From: a virus
Lineage: Duplodnaviria > Heunggongvirae > Uroviricota > Caudoviricetes
Virus record (IMG/VR): IMGVR_UViG_2698536458_000008
Coordinates: 1-4,989 of that record
Reading direction: 5' to 3' (one strand)
Length of the DNA stretch: 4,989 nt
In this document: piece after piece, positions 1 through 4,989 of the stretch
Numbering within the stretch: position 1 is the first letter of the stretch
Layout: each line of letters starts with the position of its first letter
Notes under the pieces: generated by a model
Told to the model about the DNA's origin: nothing
Databases searched by the model: none
What the model saw: the letters and a program-made list of their open reading frames with translations, nothing else
Program-made: the position numbers and the translations under genes

Positions 1-103
1 ATCAATAACTTAAACTGGTGGTGATGGTGACATAAAAATCAAAAAATACGCCTTTTTCCGCGAACCGCCCGCCCCGTGGACAGGCCACCCCCACCAGGAG
101 TAC

Positions 104-131
104 CTACAAAAAAGCCGGATTGCTCCGGCTT
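104..131 (-). terminator. Rho-independent terminator ending the minus-strand operon after the SSB-like gene
   Basis: On the minus strand: 8-bp stem AAGCCGGA / UCCGGCUU with loop GCAA, followed by a U-run (UUUUGU); it lies about 15 bp past the SSB-like stop codon (146-148). Confidence 0.6.
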
Positions 132-145
132 CTGTCACTCGTTGC

Positions 146-568
146 TTAAAACGGTATGTTATCCCCGTACGGATCATCATTCCCCGCCTGTTGTTTGGCC
201 CTGTTCAGTGCATCAGTGGCCTGCCCCTGTTGGCCTTTTTTACCGCCCGGTCGCGCCGTTCTGGCACTGATTACACTGTCTGCGATAACCTGCCAGCCCT
301 GCCGCGTTTCTCCGTTCTGGCCTGTCCACTGGCTTACCTGCATGTTACCCGCCACGCTCACCAGCTCGCCTTTCTGGTGCTTTGCCAGTGCGTCAGCCTG
401 TCTGCCAAACGCCAGGACGGATAACCATATCGTCGCCGTTCCGTCATCTGCCTGGCTGCACGGCAGGGGAACCGCCATACTCGCCATCGTCATTTGCGTA
501 CCCTTGCTGGTGGTCTTTAACTGCGGGTCAGCCACCAGCCGCCCGTAAGCCGCTATCTGTGCTGTCAT
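146..568 (-). CDS. ssb: Single-stranded DNA-binding protein (SSB family), 140 aa, accessory copy carried by the element
   Basis: OB-fold core collinear with E. coli SSB (IWLSVLAFGRQADALAKHQKGELVSVAGNMQVSQWTGQNGETRQGWQVIADSVI versus the [40 protein letters not shown] region), Gly/Gln-rich linker and a C-terminal tip ...DDPYGDNIPF resembling the canonical DDDIPF tail. GGAGAG Shine-Dalgarno 8 nt upstream; the ATG overlaps the upstream stop as ATGA (565-568). Confidence 0.85.
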   Translation of the reverse strand: MTAQIAAYGRLVADPQLKTTSKGTQMTMASMAVPLPCSQADDGTATIWLSVLAFGRQADALAKHQKGELVSVAGNMQVSQWTGQNGETRQGWQVIADSVISARTARPGGKKGQQGQATDALNRAKQQAGNDDPYGDNIPF

Positions 569-810
569 GCTGTCTGCTCTCCGGTTTTAACGTTGATGGT
601 TGTCACCTGTTCCGCTTCGGCAATCTCCCGTTCTGTCAGCGTGGCAAAGTTTGCCGCCGTCGTGGTCATGAATGCGCTTATCAGTTCGGGATGTGCTTTC
701 GCGTATCCTTCCCCGGCGTTGCGGTCGATGATTTTTATCGCCACCCTCAGCCAGTGTTCTGTCAAATCAAGGGCGTGAGATTGTGGTTTTTTGGCGTGCT
801 TCGTTGTCAC
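565..810 (-). CDS. Hypothetical protein, 81 aa, translationally coupled to the SSB-like gene
   Basis: ORF in the six-frame track beginning MTTKHAKKPQ; GTG start at 810-808 preceded by GAGG with a 7-nt spacer; stop overlaps the SSB start (ATGA). No family recognised by eye. Confidence 0.55.
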   Translation of the reverse strand: MTTKHAKKPQSHALDLTEHWLRVAIKIIDRNAGEGYAKAHPELISAFMTTTAANFATLTEREIAEAEQVTTINVKTGEQTA

Positions 811-854
811 AGGCTTTACCTCACAGCAATAAAATAAAATTTTTGCATTTTAAC

Positions 855-1084
855 CCTTCACCTGTTCACCTTTTGCAATTTTCCCTTTTTATTCATGATG
901 TTAATGGGTTAACAGTTTCACAAAAACTATTCACCAACTGTTCACCACTGTTCACCCTTAAAGCTCAATAAAGAATCAAAAAGGTGAACAGTGAATAGTT
1001 TGGTGAACAGTTCATAAATAACTGTTCACCCTATAATATACTGATATAAAAGACATTTATTGCAGGGTGAACAGTGGTGAACAG
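855..1084. repeat. Iteron-type replication origin (P4 ori-like): TGTTCACC octamers in both orientations around an AT-rich core
   Basis: Direct TGTTCACC at 863-870, 939-946, 949-956, 1023-1030, with degenerate copies at 855-862 (CCTTCACC) and 928-935 (TATTCACC). Inverted GGTGAACA at 983-990, 1003-1010, 1066-1073, 1076-1083, with a degenerate copy at 991-998. Tandem copies are phased at 10 bp (939/949 and 1066/1076). A perfect 9-bp inverted pair GGTGAACAG(1003-1011) / CTGTTCACC(1022-1030) flanks an AT-rich spacer, followed by the AT-rich stretch 1031-1062. TGTTCACC is the type I iteron bound by the P4 alpha protein at ori and crr. The array sits immediately 3' of the primase-helicase gene. Confidence 0.75.
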
Positions 1085-1113
1085 TTATTCCATAAGTTTA
1101 ATTTTTTCCATCG

Positions 1114-2916
1114 TCATTTGTGACCTATTGCACATGATGGCATCCAGTCTTCTGAATCCTCTGTCAGGGTCACATTTGAACGCAAACCGTGCTTCGTTTT
1201 CCGTTTCATATACTCCCTGCCATATTCCGCCATTGCCCCCGGCATATCTTTACCGAAGCGCGTCAGTGTTACAGGTTTACCGAATCCGTGTGCCCTCATA
1301 TATGCCAGATAGGCGTGATAAAGATACCTGCGCGGACTGAACGGAATAATTTCGGCATTACCCACTAACAGACCATCACACATTACCGACGACATGAGAT
1401 AGCCGCAGAAGTCCACCAGCGAATCGCCCTCGCGTTTTATCACCAGAGCTTCTTCTGATTTCTGCTGCTCATACAGCAGGCGTTTAGCTTCGTCCTGGTC
1501 AGAAAAACGAGTAAGCAGGTGGCGAATCACAACCGCCAGCTCTCCTTCTATTTTTTCTGCCAGCATGGGGTCGCGTTCGTTCTCCGGTACAACTTCCGAA
1601 AAATTGAATATCACCCGACGACGTGAGATCCCCCCGCTGCGGTCACTGAATGACATGGCGTTATTGTTAACCGCCAGCACTACTGCCGGAATACGCGTTG
1701 AGTAGGGGGCTTTGTGTTTCGGGTCAATTGCCACCTTGTCACCGCCTGTAATGGCCTTAATCCCTGCCCCATCACCAGCGTAGCGGGTCATATCCGGCAT
1801 GATAATCAGCGAAAAGCCAACCACTAACGCGCGTTCCCTTGCATCTTCCAGCGCCTTCATGCTTGCCGATACTGTGTTGGCCTTACCCGCCAGCATGGTG
1901 CAAATCTCCGCCATCACGCTTTTACCACTTCCCCCTGGACCTGTTACCTCAATGAATAACTGCCAGTCGTACCGGTTCGCCAGCACCATGAATAATACAG
2001 CCAGTACGCGATCCGCCTTGCGGTCATTCTCAGCCACCGAACGGCGTAACCACTTCCAGAAATTCGGCGCATGTGTTGCCAGCGTTTCCCCCTCTGCTGG
2101 TGGGCTGAAAGGTAATTCACTGGCAATTAACAACCAGTCGTTTTTGTTATGCTCCCGAAAATTACCTGTTCTGGTATCAAATACCCCGTTACTGAATCCA
2201 ATCAGGTTACGGGCTGTATTCCCCATTACAGGCAAACTTAACTTCATGGTATCGACCGCCGATTTAATGGCGTTCTGCGAATAGCTGATCTCCGCATCAA
2301 TGAAAATCTGTGCCATAGCTCGCTGTAATTCTTTATCCTGTACTGGCTCCCATACAACGCCGTTGTAATGGTGAACAGTGTCAGAGTCAGCATGAATCGC
2401 CAGTTCACCGCCATAATGTGCCAGGAGAACTTCGCCGCGTTGACTTGCTCCCATCTGGTTAAGCGCCAGTGATGAAGCGTTATCGTCTTTTACCCGCTCT
2501 TTTTTCTTTACAGGCAGTTCAACTACCTTTTTCTTTTCCGCCTGCTCTGCCCGTTCACGTTCCAGATATTCGCGCCAGTTCTCCCGTTTCTGGCTGTGCA
2601 TTCCTTCAGGGTAATAATCAGCATCCCTGACACCTGCCGCTGCCAGTTTCTGCCCGATGGTATTAACAAGCCCCGGACGCAATAACCCCGCCTGGTAGAG
2701 ACGCACCCGATAGCGTCCGTCCGGTACGATTTGCAGCTTATCCAGTTCGGCAAGTTGTTGTTCTCCAAGCCAGACAGGAGGCACGCTGTCGCCAGCCAGT
2801 CGCCCGTCCTGTTCCTGCCACTGCTTCGCATGTGCCCACGCATCATTACCCGCAAAAATGATGACTTCCGTCATTTTGTCACGCGGCTGGTGTTTTAAAT
2901 TTGGCGCTTTTTTCAT
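1114..2916 (-). CDS. Replication initiator: P4-family primase / D5-like SF3 helicase, 600 aa
   Basis: Walker A FIEVTGPGGSGKSV, Walker B-like LIIMPDMTRYAGD, SF3 motif C-like VVLAVNNNA, and a D5_N-like region upstream (VLLAHYGGELAIHADSD...HYNGVVWEP). Preferred start is the ATG at 2916 (MKKAPNLKHQ...), with GGAGAGAG 5 nt upstream and an ATGA overlap with the upstream gene; the ORF track extends 5 codons further to a GTG at 2931. The cognate iteron array lies directly downstream. Confidence 0.9.
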   Translation of the reverse strand: MKKAPNLKHQPRDKMTEVIIFAGNDAWAHAKQWQEQDGRLAGDSVPPVWLGEQQLAELDKLQIVPDGRYRVRLYQAGLLRPGLVNTIGQKLAAAGVRDADYYPEGMHSQKRENWREYLERERAEQAEKKKVVELPVKKKERVKDDNASSLALNQMGASQRGEVLLAHYGGELAIHADSDTVHHYNGVVWEPVQDKELQRAMAQIFIDAEISYSQNAIKSAVDTMKLSLPVMGNTARNLIGFSNGVFDTRTGNFREHNKNDWLLIASELPFSPPAEGETLATHAPNFWKWLRRSVAENDRKADRVLAVLFMVLANRYDWQLFIEVTGPGGSGKSVMAEICTMLAGKANTVSASMKALEDARERALVVGFSLIIMPDMTRYAGDGAGIKAITGGDKVAIDPKHKAPYSTRIPAVVLAVNNNAMSFSDRSGGISRRRVIFNFSEVVPENERDPMLAEKIEGELAVVIRHLLTRFSDQDEAKRLLYEQQKSEEALVIKREGDSLVDFCGYLMSSVMCDGLLVGNAEIIPFSPRRYLYHAYLAYMRAHGFGKPVTLTRFGKDMPGAMAEYGREYMKRKTKHGLRSNVTLTEDSEDWMPSCAIGHK

Positions 2917-3267
2917 TTCTGCTCTCTCCACGCGGCAATCATGTTTTTCAGTTCCTGTAGTTTTTTATCAACATCCATACATGACACATGGTTATTTCTG
3001 GAAAGCGGGATTTCCCGCCTGAATCTGCTAATAAAGATCTCCACGTTCAGCGAACTATGAAATGAATAGCCATCACGAATAAAATACACACGGTCAAACA
3101 TCAGTTCTTTTACCGTTACTCTGTTACCGTTCNNNNNNNNNNNNNNNNNNNNNNNNNNNNNNNNNNNNNNNNNNNNNNNNACCGTTCTTATCCAGATAAA
3201 TAGCGCCGGGGATAATTTTGGGGTGTGCATAACCGCTGGCAGTCAAGCCAGATAAATACGTTCTCAT
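2913..3267 (-). CDS. Hypothetical small protein immediately upstream of the primase gene, interrupted by a 48-N run (3133-3180)
   Basis: C-terminal part after the gap (NGNRVTVKELMFDRVYFIRDGYSF...AAWREQK) is in the ORF-track frame and its stop overlaps the primase ATG (ATGA at 2913-2916). Before the gap, the frame from the ATG at 3267 reads MRTYLSGLTASGYAHPKIIPGAIYLDKNG; the 7-mer accgttc flanks the N-run on both sides (3126-3132 and 3181-3187), and removing the gap plus one copy joins the two frames into one continuous protein (...YLDKNGNRVTVKELMFD...). Alternative start in the ORF-track frame at 3230. Product unknown. Confidence 0.45.
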
Positions 3268-3273
3268 GATTAT

Positions 3274-3594
3274 TTATCTCAGATTTGAATCAGTATTCGC
3301 TTTCTCTATGGCATTTAATGCATCTGTGGCATTTTCAATGGTGCACCGTAACGAAATATCAAACTGCCCAAGCATTGCCAGTAACAAGCCAATATTACCC
3401 ATGTCAATGCGCATAGCCTTTTCGTCATATTCCTCATTTTCTGACGCATGCCACATCAGGCTACCAATTGACGCAACAGCCATTGATATATTGTCAGTAG
3501 CCCCATCCGCAGCGGAATAAACCTTTTTAGCAATATCATGCTCACAGTTAAAATGCGGATTAATCAGGTACTGGTAATTGGTCATGTCAGGCAT
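3274..3594 (-). CDS. Hypothetical acidic protein, 106 aa
   Basis: ORF with a perfect AGGAGG Shine-Dalgarno 6 nt upstream of the ATG at 3594 (MPDMTNYQYLINPHF...); the ORF-track start at 3636 is 14 codons further upstream and lacks an RBS. TAA stop at 3274-3276. Start overlaps the preceding gene's stop by 8 bp. No family recognised by eye. Confidence 0.6.
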   Translation of the reverse strand: MPDMTNYQYLINPHFNCEHDIAKKVYSAADGATDNISMAVASIGSLMWHASENEEYDEKAMRIDMGNIGLLLAMLGQFDISLRCTIENATDALNAIEKANTDSNLR

Positions 3595-3784
3595 GGCACA
3601 CCTCCTGACGAATACGGGCGGCGAATACAGCAACACAACCTGACGGGCAACGGTTACGCGCTTCGCGTTCCGTCCAGGCGGTTACGTGGATGATTTGAGA
3701 TTCTCCGGCACTCAGGGCCAGAAAACGCCACACAAAGGCCGTTTGTGTGTGTACAAGGTGTGGTATATGATTTACGGCAACCAT
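3587..3784 (-). CDS. Small protein, 65 aa, possibly Icd-like (host cell-division inhibitor family); first gene of the leftward early operon
   Basis: ATG at 3784 preceded by GAGGAG with a 5-nt spacer (the ORF track extends 33 codons further upstream into a hairpin region without an RBS). Sequence MVAVNHIPHLVHTQTAFVWRFLALSAGESQ...TEREARNRC...VFAARI resembles, from memory, the Icd-like proteins annotated next to alpA in P4-like islands; that assignment is unverified. Confidence 0.5.
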   Translation of the reverse strand: MVAVNHIPHLVHTQTAFVWRFLALSAGESQIIHVTAWTEREARNRCPSGCVAVFAARIRQEVCHA

Positions 3785-3813
3785 AACGGCTCCTCGTTTA
3801 CGTTGTTGGTTAG

Positions 3814-3850
3814 AAGCCCTGCGAGTGGTAACGACACTTGCGGGGCTTCG
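3814..3850. other. Long stem-loop (15-bp stem, 7-nt loop) in the regulatory region between the divergent early operon and the RHH gene
   Basis: GAAGCCCTGCGAGTG (3814-3828), loop GTAACGA, CACTTGCGGGGCTTC (3836-3850). As plus-strand RNA all 15 positions pair (13 Watson-Crick plus 2 G-U); as minus-strand RNA 13 of 15 pair. It lies in the 5' leader of the 3784->3587 gene. Confidence 0.4.
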
Positions 3851-3885
3851 TCGTTTCAATTGCTGAATTGCATGTATCAGCACTT

Positions 3886-3957
3886 GTGGTATTCACATTA
3901 CATTTAGGTGAATACCATTTCAAGTCTTTTTTGGTATTCACTTTTGTATTACACTGC
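3886..3957. promoter_or_regulatory. Operator-like repeats (GGTATTCAC) in the promoter region upstream of the RHH gene
   Basis: GGTATTCAC at 3888-3896, its inverted copy GTGAATACC at 3908-3916 (11-bp spacer) and a second direct copy at 3933-3941, plus a degenerate GTATTACAC at 3947-3955, all within about 100 bp of the RHH start codon in an AT-rich region. Confidence 0.45.
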
Positions 3958-3984
3958 ATCCCGTTATTAATGGGAGGTGCAAAC

Positions 3985-4290
3985 ATGTCCAGGAGTTCTG
4001 TTAACAATAAGTCACAGCAACTGAATGCCAGATTTCCACATGAAGTAGTGAGTGGCATTGAGGCATCCCTACAGCCAGGGGAAACTAAAGCGAATTTTAT
4101 AGTTACGGCTGTACGCGGTGAGATCGCCAGGCGCCAGGCAGAAGGAAGTGGAGAAAATCCCCTTGTGTCTTCACTGGATGCCCTAGCTAATGTCGAACAA
4201 ATCGGCATCAAGGCAGCGGAGGAAATCGGGCAGCTTATCACCGTTGCACGCGAAGAACTCCAGCGCCGCAAGGCCAAAGAATCAGAATAA
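3985..4290 (+). CDS. Ribbon-helix-helix (Arc/MetJ/CopG-like) DNA-binding protein, 101 aa; candidate repressor of the element
   Basis: GGGAGGTG Shine-Dalgarno 5 nt before the ATG at 3985. N-terminus KSQQLNARFPHEVVSGIEASLQPGETKANFIVTAVRGEIARRQ fits the RHH beta-strand/helix/helix pattern (compare Arc QFNLRWPREVLD). C-terminal ~50 aa is helical and charged. Opposite orientation to all flanking genes. The ORF-track version starting at 3838 is an unsupported N-terminal extension. Confidence 0.7.
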   Translation: MSRSSVNNKSQQLNARFPHEVVSGIEASLQPGETKANFIVTAVRGEIARRQAEGSGENPLVSSLDALANVEQIGIKAAEEIGQLITVAREELQRRKAKESE

Positions 4291-4347
4291 TCACTATCAG
4301 CGCCGTGGTGTGAGGAACTCCGGCGCATTGCTTTACAGGCGCACACA

Positions 4348-4524
4348 ATGACCAACGAAGAATCAACCAAAAAAACATCACCTGCACGAAAAAGACGACG
4401 CAGAAAGAAAGAGCATGAATCAGAACGATTCGCGCCGTGTTCTTTTGCCCTTGAGAAGTACCTTAAAGAATACTCATCAAAGGAGAGAGCTTCGCAGTTA
4501 TGGCAACGCACTGAAACAGACTGA
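4348..4524 (+). CDS. Putative small basic protein, 58 aa, downstream of the RHH gene (uncertain)
   Basis: My own translation of ATG 4348 to TGA 4522-4524: MTNEESTKKTSPARKRRRRKKEHESERFAPCSFALEKYLKEYSSKERASQLWQRTETD. Same strand as the RHH gene and upstream of the plus-strand terminator, but no convincing RBS; below the ORF-track length cutoff. Confidence 0.25.
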   Translation: MTNEESTKKTSPARKRRRRKKEHESERFAPCSFALEKYLKEYSSKERASQLWQRTETD

Positions 4525-4588
4525 TAGCATTGCCCACCAGCCTGATAGCGGCTATCATTGACATGCTTATGTTTAGTGTTTCCAAACT

Positions 4589-4618
4589 GGCGACCGCCCC
4601 AGGTCGCCTTTGTTTTAT
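4589..4618 (+). terminator. Rho-independent terminator for the plus-strand RHH transcript (possibly weakly bidirectional)
   Basis: GGCGACC (4589-4595), loop GCCCCA, GGTCGCC (4602-4608), followed by TTTGTTTTAT. On the minus strand the same hairpin is followed by a poorer U-tract and lies just downstream of the AlpA-like stop. Confidence 0.65.
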
Positions 4619-4635
4619 GTGTCATATGCTCCCCT

Positions 4636-4845
4636 TTACACTGCCTTACCTGAATTAATGCGATCCCGGCTTTTAACCCATTCCATAACCTCGGACAGCA
4701 GCCACCCTACAGAACGACCGCCCAGATTAAGACGTGACGGAAAGCGCCCTTTTTTCTCCAGTTCGTAACGTGTAGTGCGGCACACTCCAGTTAACTTACG
4801 ACATTCATCCTCACGGATTACGCGATCTTCATTTATTTCACGCAT
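4636..4845 (-). CDS. alpA: AlpA/Vis-family phage transcriptional regulator (excisionase-like HTH), 69 aa
   Basis: MREINEDRVIREDECRKLTGVCRTTRYELEKKGRFPSRLNLGGRSVGWLLSEVMEWVKSR contains the AlpA-type motif (compare E. coli AlpA ...LGVKSVGWIEAEIDEWL). ATG at 4845 gives the family-typical ~70 aa; the ORF-track start (GTG at 4932) adds 29 residues of doubtful coding quality. Confidence 0.8.
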   Translation of the reverse strand: MREINEDRVIREDECRKLTGVCRTTRYELEKKGRFPSRLNLGGRSVGWLLSEVMEWVKSRDRINSGKAV

Positions 4846-4989
4846 ACAAAAACCTACATAAAAATTACGTATATAAACTTTTCTCTTAGCTGTAGATATA
4901 TGAGATCGGATATTACTTAGATTCTTTTTCACCTCTTAAATTAAAAACACAACCATGCTGGTAATGACTCCAACTTATTGATAGTGTTT

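Follow-up and report, generated by a model that had tools for sequence, protein, structure and literature searches.

What does the long inverted repeat in front of the icd-like gene of a phage satellite do, and on which strand does it act? The window analyzed here is the whole 4,989-nucleotide (nt) stretch of IMG/VR virus record IMGVR_UViG_2698536458_000008 (positions 1 to 4,989). It is part of a satellite of the phage-inducible chromosomal island (PICI) or capsid-forming PICI (cf-PICI) type, in the family of EcCICFT073, the prototype Gram-negative PICI, and the Sakai prophage-like element Sp7. An earlier note on this DNA had placed a hairpin at 3814-3850, in the leader of the first early gene, and had offered three roles for it: an RNase III processing site, an attenuator of the early operon, or a small regulatory RNA by analogy with the P4 CI RNA. 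We propose instead that the hairpin is the 3' terminal stem-loop, acting as terminator and stability element, of a plus-strand cis-antisense RNA of about 80 nt (~3779 to ~3857) that would block the translation of icd-like, and we give this reading a probability of roughly two in three. A conserved two-stem structure of plus polarity lies over the icd-like translation-initiation region, bounded by a -10-like hexamer on one side and the hairpin on the other. By analogy with SymR, sar, the R1162 countertranscript, and P1 c4-icd, we infer that the promoter fires, that the hairpin terminates the transcript, and what the regulatory outcome would be.

A repeat search located two 15-nt arms at 3813-3827 (GAAGCCCTGCGAGTG) and 3835-3849 (CACTTGCGGGGCTTC), separated by a 7-nt spacer and 87% Watson-Crick paired, so that the hairpin stands but begins and ends one base to the left of where it had first been placed. 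It precedes the icd-like ATG by 28 nt, and the origin iterons aside, there is no second long G+C-rich hairpin within the window. Refolding agreed with the original description of both strands. As plus-strand RNA, the repeat forms an unbroken 15-bp stem (13 Watson-Crick and 2 G-U pairs) with a 7-nt loop and a minimum free energy of -30 kcal/mol (z -5.65), and none of 200 dinucleotide shuffles was as stable. As minus-strand RNA, the same stem carries two 1x1 C-A mismatches at the wobble positions and reaches -19.9 kcal/mol (z -4.24). Eight of the 15 plus-strand pairs are G-C, giving the G+C-rich stem-loop of an intrinsic terminator. No U-run was found in the minus-strand flank (UCUAACCAAC), which rules out a simple terminator on that strand, as had been said before. 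The plus-strand tail past the hairpin, GUCGUUUCAAUU, is moderately U-rich; this U content and the option of a terminator for a countertranscript had been overlooked.

The strand on which the structure is selected was read from relatives. Through the Icd-like protein, 237 related loci were gathered, yielding 50 unique hairpin cores; a profile search of genome contigs with the Icd-like alignment added 3 loci only, and the covariation is thus not cross-genus. All loci that share the leader have the hairpin at the same position, with about 10 different stem-top and loop sequences among the 50 cores, and one stem type (GAGGCUGCGAAAGGA...UCCUUUUCAGCCUC, GAGGCUG...CAGCCUC) is unrelated to the stem of the window. 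In an alignment of 29 sequences in plus-strand orientation (13 consensus pairs, 373 cells), changes on both sides of the pair were found in 8 of the 13 consensus pairs. The earlier note had let its reading depend on pairing being conserved in homologous elements, and the pairing is kept by these compensatory changes. Paired cells made up 97.3%, compared to 38 to 56% when the partners were slid by 1 to 3 columns, and none of 500 shuffles matched the observed values. Of the 373 cells, 308 were Watson-Crick and 55 were G-U on the plus strand, while not one would be G-U on the minus strand, indicating that selection acts on the plus-strand RNA, antisense to icd-like. The preference for plus-strand pairing first noticed in the window extends to 49 of the 50 unique variants, by a mean of -7.3 kcal/mol. 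Since such a one-sided wobble pattern is not expected from a duplex-DNA site or from a structure in the sense mRNA, the functional molecule is an RNA of plus polarity; single-stranded DNA of that polarity is less likely.

Around the start of icd-like, upstream of the hairpin on the plus strand, lie the other parts of the predicted unit. All 86 unique sequences carry TATGAT, TATGCT, or TATAGT at a distance of 41 to 44 nt upstream from the stem. The offset of this hexamer from the ATG varies, being +13 in relatives of the window type and +7 in those of the EcCICFT073 type, and the distance to the stem is fixed nonetheless. The lone TATAGT (1/86) is due to a His-to-Tyr substitution in which the TA...T positions are kept. 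In the window type, the hexamer has a TTGTGT 17 nt upstream, and in the EcCICFT073 type, it has an extended -10 TGn. Downstream, the anti-start CAU (3782-3784) and an anti-Shine-Dalgarno CUCCUC (3790-3795) both fall between the hexamer and the hairpin, so that, by position, the predicted transcript overlaps the start codon and Shine-Dalgarno of its target. The CUCCUC sits within the loop of a first stem-loop (SL1), into which the 35 nt separating hexamer and hairpin fold, and the anti-Shine-Dalgarno is in or beside the loop across types. The 3' strand of SL1 is an invariant UGGUU(A), and its 5' strand, AACCA, AGCCA, or UAGCUACC according to type, is complementary to the region around the start codon; A-to-G and C-to-U differences in the 5' strand are tolerated as plus-strand wobbles only. 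SL1 folds in four sequence types, with z values of -2.9 to -4.6 in three of them, and each of 34 unique variants is more stable as plus-strand RNA. When a MAFFT alignment of the whole RNA was folded with RNAalifold, only the hairpin, here called SL2, was recovered, because SL1 does not align between types; the support for SL1 comes from per-type folds.

Within the 12 nt that follow the final G-C pair of SL2, the relatives have a mean of 6.8 U on the plus strand, versus 2.4 on the other. Their tails (e.g., UUUGCUUUUUUA and UUGUUUUUUGG) have at least 7 U in 12 nt in 28 of 50 variants. The scan tool flagged the Sakai Sp7 copy as terminator-like on the plus strand; its tail reads GCUUUUUU, where the window has GUCGUUUC. 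A covariance model of the full unit (R2) gave 107 hits at E <= 1e-5, distributed over 100 loci and without exception antisense to icd-like, and the whole unit of hexamer, anti-AUG, SL1, and SL2 also recurs before other short leader open reading frames (ORFs) in some elements. The structure is therefore kept on the strand opposite the target gene both in its wobble pairs (55 versus 0) and in its genomic placement (107/107).

Two observations on the relatives concern the unit as a module. Some of them carry a second full antisense unit some 750 nt farther upstream, on the far side of the divergent regulator gene (L041 675-764, L058, L060, L066, L076, L086 282-370, L097 353-438, L100, and L002 5395-5515). 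The leader ORF that this unit faces is short or truncated (e.g., MAIKEHSLLFIHTQT...) and is followed by its own terminator-like hairpin; the window lacks the second unit. In addition, SL1 types, SL2 stem types, and tail and regulatory modules combine in many ways in alignment A3 and in the 37 representative sequences, indicating frequent recombination at the conserved UGGUUAGA and stem-base junctions.

Alone among the alternatives, a plus-strand terminator without a dedicated small RNA retains an appreciable, if small, probability. Such a terminator would keep pervasive antisense transcription that leaves the replication operon from entering the divergent regulatory region and the ylcI promoter, or would attenuate a longer plus-strand transcript into ylcI. 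It would show the same strand asymmetry and the same T-rich tails, and a repressor-like gene is always downstream on the plus strand. However, it does not account for a -10-like hexamer at a fixed 41 to 44 nt or for a conserved SL1 with the anti-Shine-Dalgarno in its loop, and the part-by-part agreement with SymR, P22 sar, and the R1162 countertranscript suggests a discrete RNA.

We consider it unlikely that the hairpin works as a sense-strand element in the 5' untranslated region (UTR) of the icd-like mRNA, whether as a stabilizer, an RNase III site, or an attenuator. Its location there, as originally described, is borne out by a predicted sense promoter upstream of it, both in the window and in EcCICFT073, where a clear TTGACG-18-TATAGT precedes the equivalent hairpin; the hairpin sequence is thus within the predicted icd-like 5' UTR. 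The minus strand still folds, as given above, and as the complement of an antisense RNA, the sequence would be part of the target anyway. But all wobble positions are G-U in plus-strand RNA and C-A in its minus-strand counterpart, the minus version is the less stable in 49 of 50 variants, and the minus strand has no U-run. The RNase III site and the attenuator, as elements of the early mRNA leader, consequently do not fit, because the selected strand is the opposite one. The third of the roles first offered, a small regulatory RNA, is the best reading. A related idea, that the hairpin followed by ...ACCA on the sense strand is an RNase P minihelix substrate by analogy with C4, was rejected: the CCA would have to be 3 nt closer to the stem, and pairing is poor on the sense strand.

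Still less probable is an element acting at the level of DNA, such as an operator for a protein (e.g., AlpA or a YlcI-like protein), a cruciform, or a single-stranded hairpin for replication or packaging. The inverted repeat adjoins operator-like repeats, the element encodes a primase and a single-stranded DNA-binding protein (SSB), and hairpins in single-stranded DNA tolerate G-T pairs. Yet the arms are wholly different in sequence from one variant to another and still pair, which speaks against a protein that recognizes a specific sequence; the strict strand asymmetry would be unexpected for duplex DNA; and the origin iterons are 2.8 kb distant. A protein-coding region is the least credible, for although a 98-amino-acid (aa) ORF (3587-3883) is open across the hairpin in the window, PGAP calls "ash family" or extended Icd-like coding sequences (CDSs) through it, and some database proteins of 90 to 108 aa carry PF10554, the hairpin variants differ in sequence and by 1 to 2 nt in length without keeping frame, the Shine-Dalgarno and the ATG at 3784 are conserved, and the NCBIfam domain begins at residue 17 of the 65-aa form. 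In CFT073 (L238 4277-4750) and in hits H18, H19, and H21, the hairpin and promoter region is crossed by PGAP CDSs named "Icd-like" (158 aa) or "ash family." These are probably annotation artifacts from an open frame across the RNA gene, which would explain the overextended "ash" and Icd-like gene calls across the region.

Several points weigh against an antisense RNA at this locus. The predicted promoter has 8 of 12 consensus matches and is below the threshold of the scan tool, and the conservation of the hexamer is not cleanly separable from coding constraint, because the His codon is always CAT and there are only about 5 independent N-terminal types. The tail of the window is among the weakest of the family, and its SL1 is the weakest: GUCGUUUCAAUU fails the U-run criterion of the scan tool (5 T in 8), and the z of SL1 in the window's own type is only -1.1. 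The relatives are almost all Escherichia and mosaic, since SL1 and SL2 types recombine freely, and they therefore represent a modest number of independent events. The window did not reach the gathering score of any related Rfam family: the sar RNA model (RF00262) gave 11.9 bits (E 7.3; gathering score 43) on SL2 only, on the plus strand; RF00043 gave 16.6 bits (E 0.74; gathering score 55) on the mirror strand; and SymR (RF01809; gathering score 61) gave no hit in the window. The SL2-only match to sar is not decisive, because the mirror strand of true members also reaches about 20 bits with our own models. Evidence of a transcript was looked for and not found: Table S2 of the Hfq-CRAC study of Sakai lists no small RNA in Sp7, which is weak evidence because SymR-type RNAs do not need Hfq. 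Literature searches for exact sequence strings, and for Icd-like or PICI together with antisense RNA, returned nothing relevant, and Pichon et al. 2012 does not bear on the question.

The features of the window are collected in Table 1. On the minus strand, from right to left, the genes run AlpA, icd-like, a 106-aa ORF, a DUF4222-like ORF, a P4-type primase, a small ORF, and SSB; the divergent YlcI/YnfO-family gene is the only plus-strand gene. Close relatives in E. coli additionally carry integrase and capsid genes, and the icd-like gene of Sp7 is ECs1577. Iterons of the form ACTGTTCACC / GGTGAACAGT, in both orientations, are clustered at 896-1075, in the gap that separates the primase gene from the next ORF, and look like the P4-type replication origin of the satellite. 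By eye, the N-terminal region of the YlcI/YnfO product resembles Arc/Mnt-type ribbon-helix-helix proteins; the Sakai relative has another small divergent ORF, with GGTGGTCACC repeats. The overall layout is reminiscent of P22 immI (mnt, operator, sar, ant).

Table 1. Positions of the features discussed, in window coordinates
Feature	Position	Strand	Remarks
-35-like hexamer TTGTGT, 17 nt upstream of TATGAT	3743..3748	+	read from sequence; conserved in window-type relatives
-10-like hexamer TATGAT of predicted antisense promoter	3766..3771	+	inside icd-like codons 5-7
Predicted SL1	3779..3811	+	AACCAUAACG (anti-start CAU 3782-3784) pairs with CGUUG-UUGGUU
Conserved UGGUUAGA motif, 3' strand of SL1 outer helix	3807..3814	+	invariant in alignments A2 and A3
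Hairpin, read as SL2	3813..3849	+	GAAGCCCUGCGAGUG-GUAACGA-CACUUGCGGGGCUUC; folding, covariation, stem base as in P22 sar terminator
Tail after stem	3850..3860	+	GUCGUUUCAAU; 3' end predicted ~4-8 nt past stem
Icd-like, 65 aa, first cistron of replication operon, target gene	3587..3784	-	translation; NF033153, 64.8 bits
106-aa ORF	directly after icd-like	-	own ATG overlaps icd-like stop (ATGCCTGA)
DUF4222-like ORF upstream of primase		-	contains 48-N run 3133-3180 (masked or unresolved)
P4-type primase	2931-1114	-	
Small ORF and SSB	beyond primase	-	
Predicted sense promoter	TTGAAA 3923-3918, 17 nt, TAATGT 3900-3895	-	read from sequence; not flagged by scan tool
Three TGGTATTCAC copies (direct, inverted, direct), between divergent genes	3887..3941	.	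presumed operators
YlcI/YnfO-family gene, divergent; downstream of hairpin on plus strand	3985..4290	+	NF041551, 60.3 bits
AlpA	4636-4932	-	

If the antisense RNA is made, a sigma-70 promoter, TTGTGT-17-TATGAT (3743-3771), inside the first codons of the minus-strand icd-like gene would drive its transcription, constitutively by analogy with SymR, sar, the R1162 countertranscript, and P1 c4-icd. The transcript would cross the start codon and Shine-Dalgarno in reverse, fold into SL1, with the anti-Shine-Dalgarno in its loop, and SL2, and end a few bases past SL2, which would terminate the transcript and shield its 3' end. Pairing with the complementary icd-like leader would then stop ribosome binding and translation initiation of the small first cistron. 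Expression of the replication operon would be lowered through the overlap of the icd-like stop and the start of the next ORF; the replication module would be held down because that ORF begins within the icd-like stop and the primase operon follows.

A further terminator-like hairpin with a U-run, CACACAAACGGCCUUUGUGUG followed by GCGUUUUCUG, lies on the minus (sense) strand at 3729-3749, with a tail to ~3719, inside icd-like codons 12-19. It is kept in window-type relatives, including loci with the rest of icd replaced, and is absent in the EcCICFT073 type; its 3' arm also serves as the -35 of the predicted antisense promoter. This hairpin could be a translation-sensitive attenuator. In the window type, if ribosomes normally melt it, a translation block would add premature termination.

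A role as effectors of cell death has been ascribed to Icd-like proteins (bioRxiv 10.1101/2023.04.06.535777), and icd-like and its antisense RNA may therefore act as a type I toxin-antitoxin-like pair. In Gram-negative PICIs, AlpA is an activator, and the global repressor is unclear (Fillol-Salom et al. 2018, PMC6092414). A conserved countertranscript against the first cistron of the replication operon would offer a concrete, testable candidate for what keeps these islands quiet. The wider proposal is tentative, and we hold it to be distinctly doubtful: the antisense RNA would be the missing negative regulator of Gram-negative PICIs and cf-PICIs, silencing the replication operon via the icd-like leader cistron, possibly reinforced in the window type by the codon 12-19 hairpin, and the many interchangeable SL2 stem and loop types would set pairing specificity, such that co-resident satellites are controlled independently, as plasmid incompatibility groups are.

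The unit is widespread in E. coli. A 97-nt query running from the -10-like hexamer to the hairpin tail (3766-3862) matched 788 of 5,426 complete E. coli genomes; the phage collection gave no DNA match to the hairpin region. Carriers of the unit include the model elements EcCICFT073 and Sakai Sp7. EcCIEDL933, which is among the named cf-PICIs (10.1101/2025.02.11.637232), is, we infer, the same element as Sp7. Regulators of this kind are well known; their presence before icd-like in PICI and cf-PICI satellites is not covered by any curated family or literature that we found.

How, then, does the predicted RNA compare with antisense RNAs already described? Its geometry and short motifs match those of SymR, P22 sar, and the RSF1010/R1162 countertranscript, with no Rfam threshold reached; on the whole window at E <= 1, Rfam returned only microRNA-type noise on the origin iterons and operators. 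The analogy with the P4 CI RNA in the earlier note did not carry over to membership, as no C4, isrK, or P4 CI hit was obtained with Rfam in the window even at E <= 10. C4, isrK, and P4 CI (RF01695, RF01394) likewise regulate icd or an icd-like gene: situated in its leader, they pair with the ribosome-binding site. In contrast, C4 and CI are encoded on the icd strand and act in trans after processing, whereas the strand selected here is the opposite one. P4-like relatives have canonical isrK and C4 in the icd-like leader slot, sometimes downstream of the hairpin unit; isrK and C4 matches lie upstream of icd-like on the sense strand in L002, L086, L104, L079, and L135. At L094 1054-1500 and in L002, L086, L097, and L104, canonical isrK and C4 and a second icd-like gene come after the hairpin unit and the first 24 codons of icd-like (MVAVNHIPHLVHTQTAFVWRFLAL), indicating that both RNA systems are stacked in one leader in these P4-like relatives.

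P22 sar is likewise an antisense RNA of two stem-loops that crosses the ribosome-binding site of its target. Its sequence (PMC13397905) scores 97.8 bits with the Rfam model. The -10 (TATACT) of sar lies in ant codons 2-4, transcription starts beside the ant AUG, and SL1 carries UCUCC. SL2 of sar is GAAGCCCUGACUG-UUACCG-CAGUUGGGGCUUC, with the stem base GAAGCCCUG...GGGGCUUC and a U-G pair as in the window, and the RNA ends 4 nt past the stem without a U-run. The small repressor gene mnt is divergent and downstream on the sar strand, as ylcI is here. The two systems differ in target (ant versus icd-like), in the lack of an arc cistron here, in unrelated SL1 sequences, and in host element (a P22-like phage versus a PICI-type satellite). 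A sar-like hairpin, GAAGCCCUGACUGUUACAGCAGUUGGGGCUUC, also occurs in Sakai prophage Sp6 (L237 17267-17298), where it lies in antisense orientation immediately upstream of the antirepressor gene ECs_1557, and is probably a sar homologue in a lambdoid prophage.

In E. coli K-12, symE is countered by the antitoxin SymR, a 77-nt cis-antisense RNA that is transcribed from a promoter within the symE ORF and blocks translation independently of Hfq and RNase III (PMC1891008). The order of elements is the same: a -10, 7 nt, and A-N-N-CAUAAC (AGUCAUAAC in symR, AACCAUAAC in the window), then an anti-Shine-Dalgarno stem-loop, (G/U)GAUUAG or GGUUAG, and, at the 3' end, a G+C-rich hairpin that no U-run follows. 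Set side by side, symR reads TAGAAT, 7 nt, AGUCAUAACUGCUAUUCUCC...UUGUGAUUAG, G+C-rich hairpin, and GCUAA, and the window reads TATGAT, 7 nt, AACCAUAACGGCUCCUC...UUGUUGGUUAG, and hairpin. Both sar and SymR end 4 to 5 nt past the stem without a U-run. The SymR model gave 25.9 to 35.9 bits on relatives, all below its gathering score of 61; on the relatives' predicted RNA, the hits were full-length and on the correct strand (34.5 to 35.9 bits, E 0.002 to 0.004). SymR differs in target protein family and genomic context.

The countertranscript of the IncQ plasmids R1162 and RSF1010 (RF00043), grouped with PtaRNA1 (RF01811), is also among the closest known systems. This RNA of ~75 nt runs antisense to the beginning of the replication gene repA and, as here, stands before a replication operon. 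The RSF1010 countertranscript strand reads GUAGCCAUUGAUUGCCUCCUUUGCAGGCAGUUGGUGGUUAGGCGC... and shares the 12-mer GUUGGUGGUUAG with type 2 relatives such as EcCICFT073; the outer helix of SL1 (anti-start CCA with UGG) and a G+C-rich SL2 directly after it are also the same. The SL2 sequence is different, as is the setting, plasmid copy control rather than a phage satellite. On an RSF1010-type plasmid (CP044303.1, L240 564-638), RF00043 matches the repA-sense strand with 98.5 bits, and PtaRNA1 matches the opposite strand. The strand matched by RF00043 contains AUGGCUAC, which encodes RepA Met-Ala-Thr, and the RF00043 model may have been built on the target strand. Another IncQ plasmid (L239), a hybrid without the countertranscript region, was set aside. 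Model R2 matched the RSF1010 countertranscript strand over its full length (21.1 bits, E 7e-4), its best nonself hit in 62.7 kb. SymR, sar, and the R1162 countertranscript, which are curated as separate families, are thus linked by a common geometry and common motifs.

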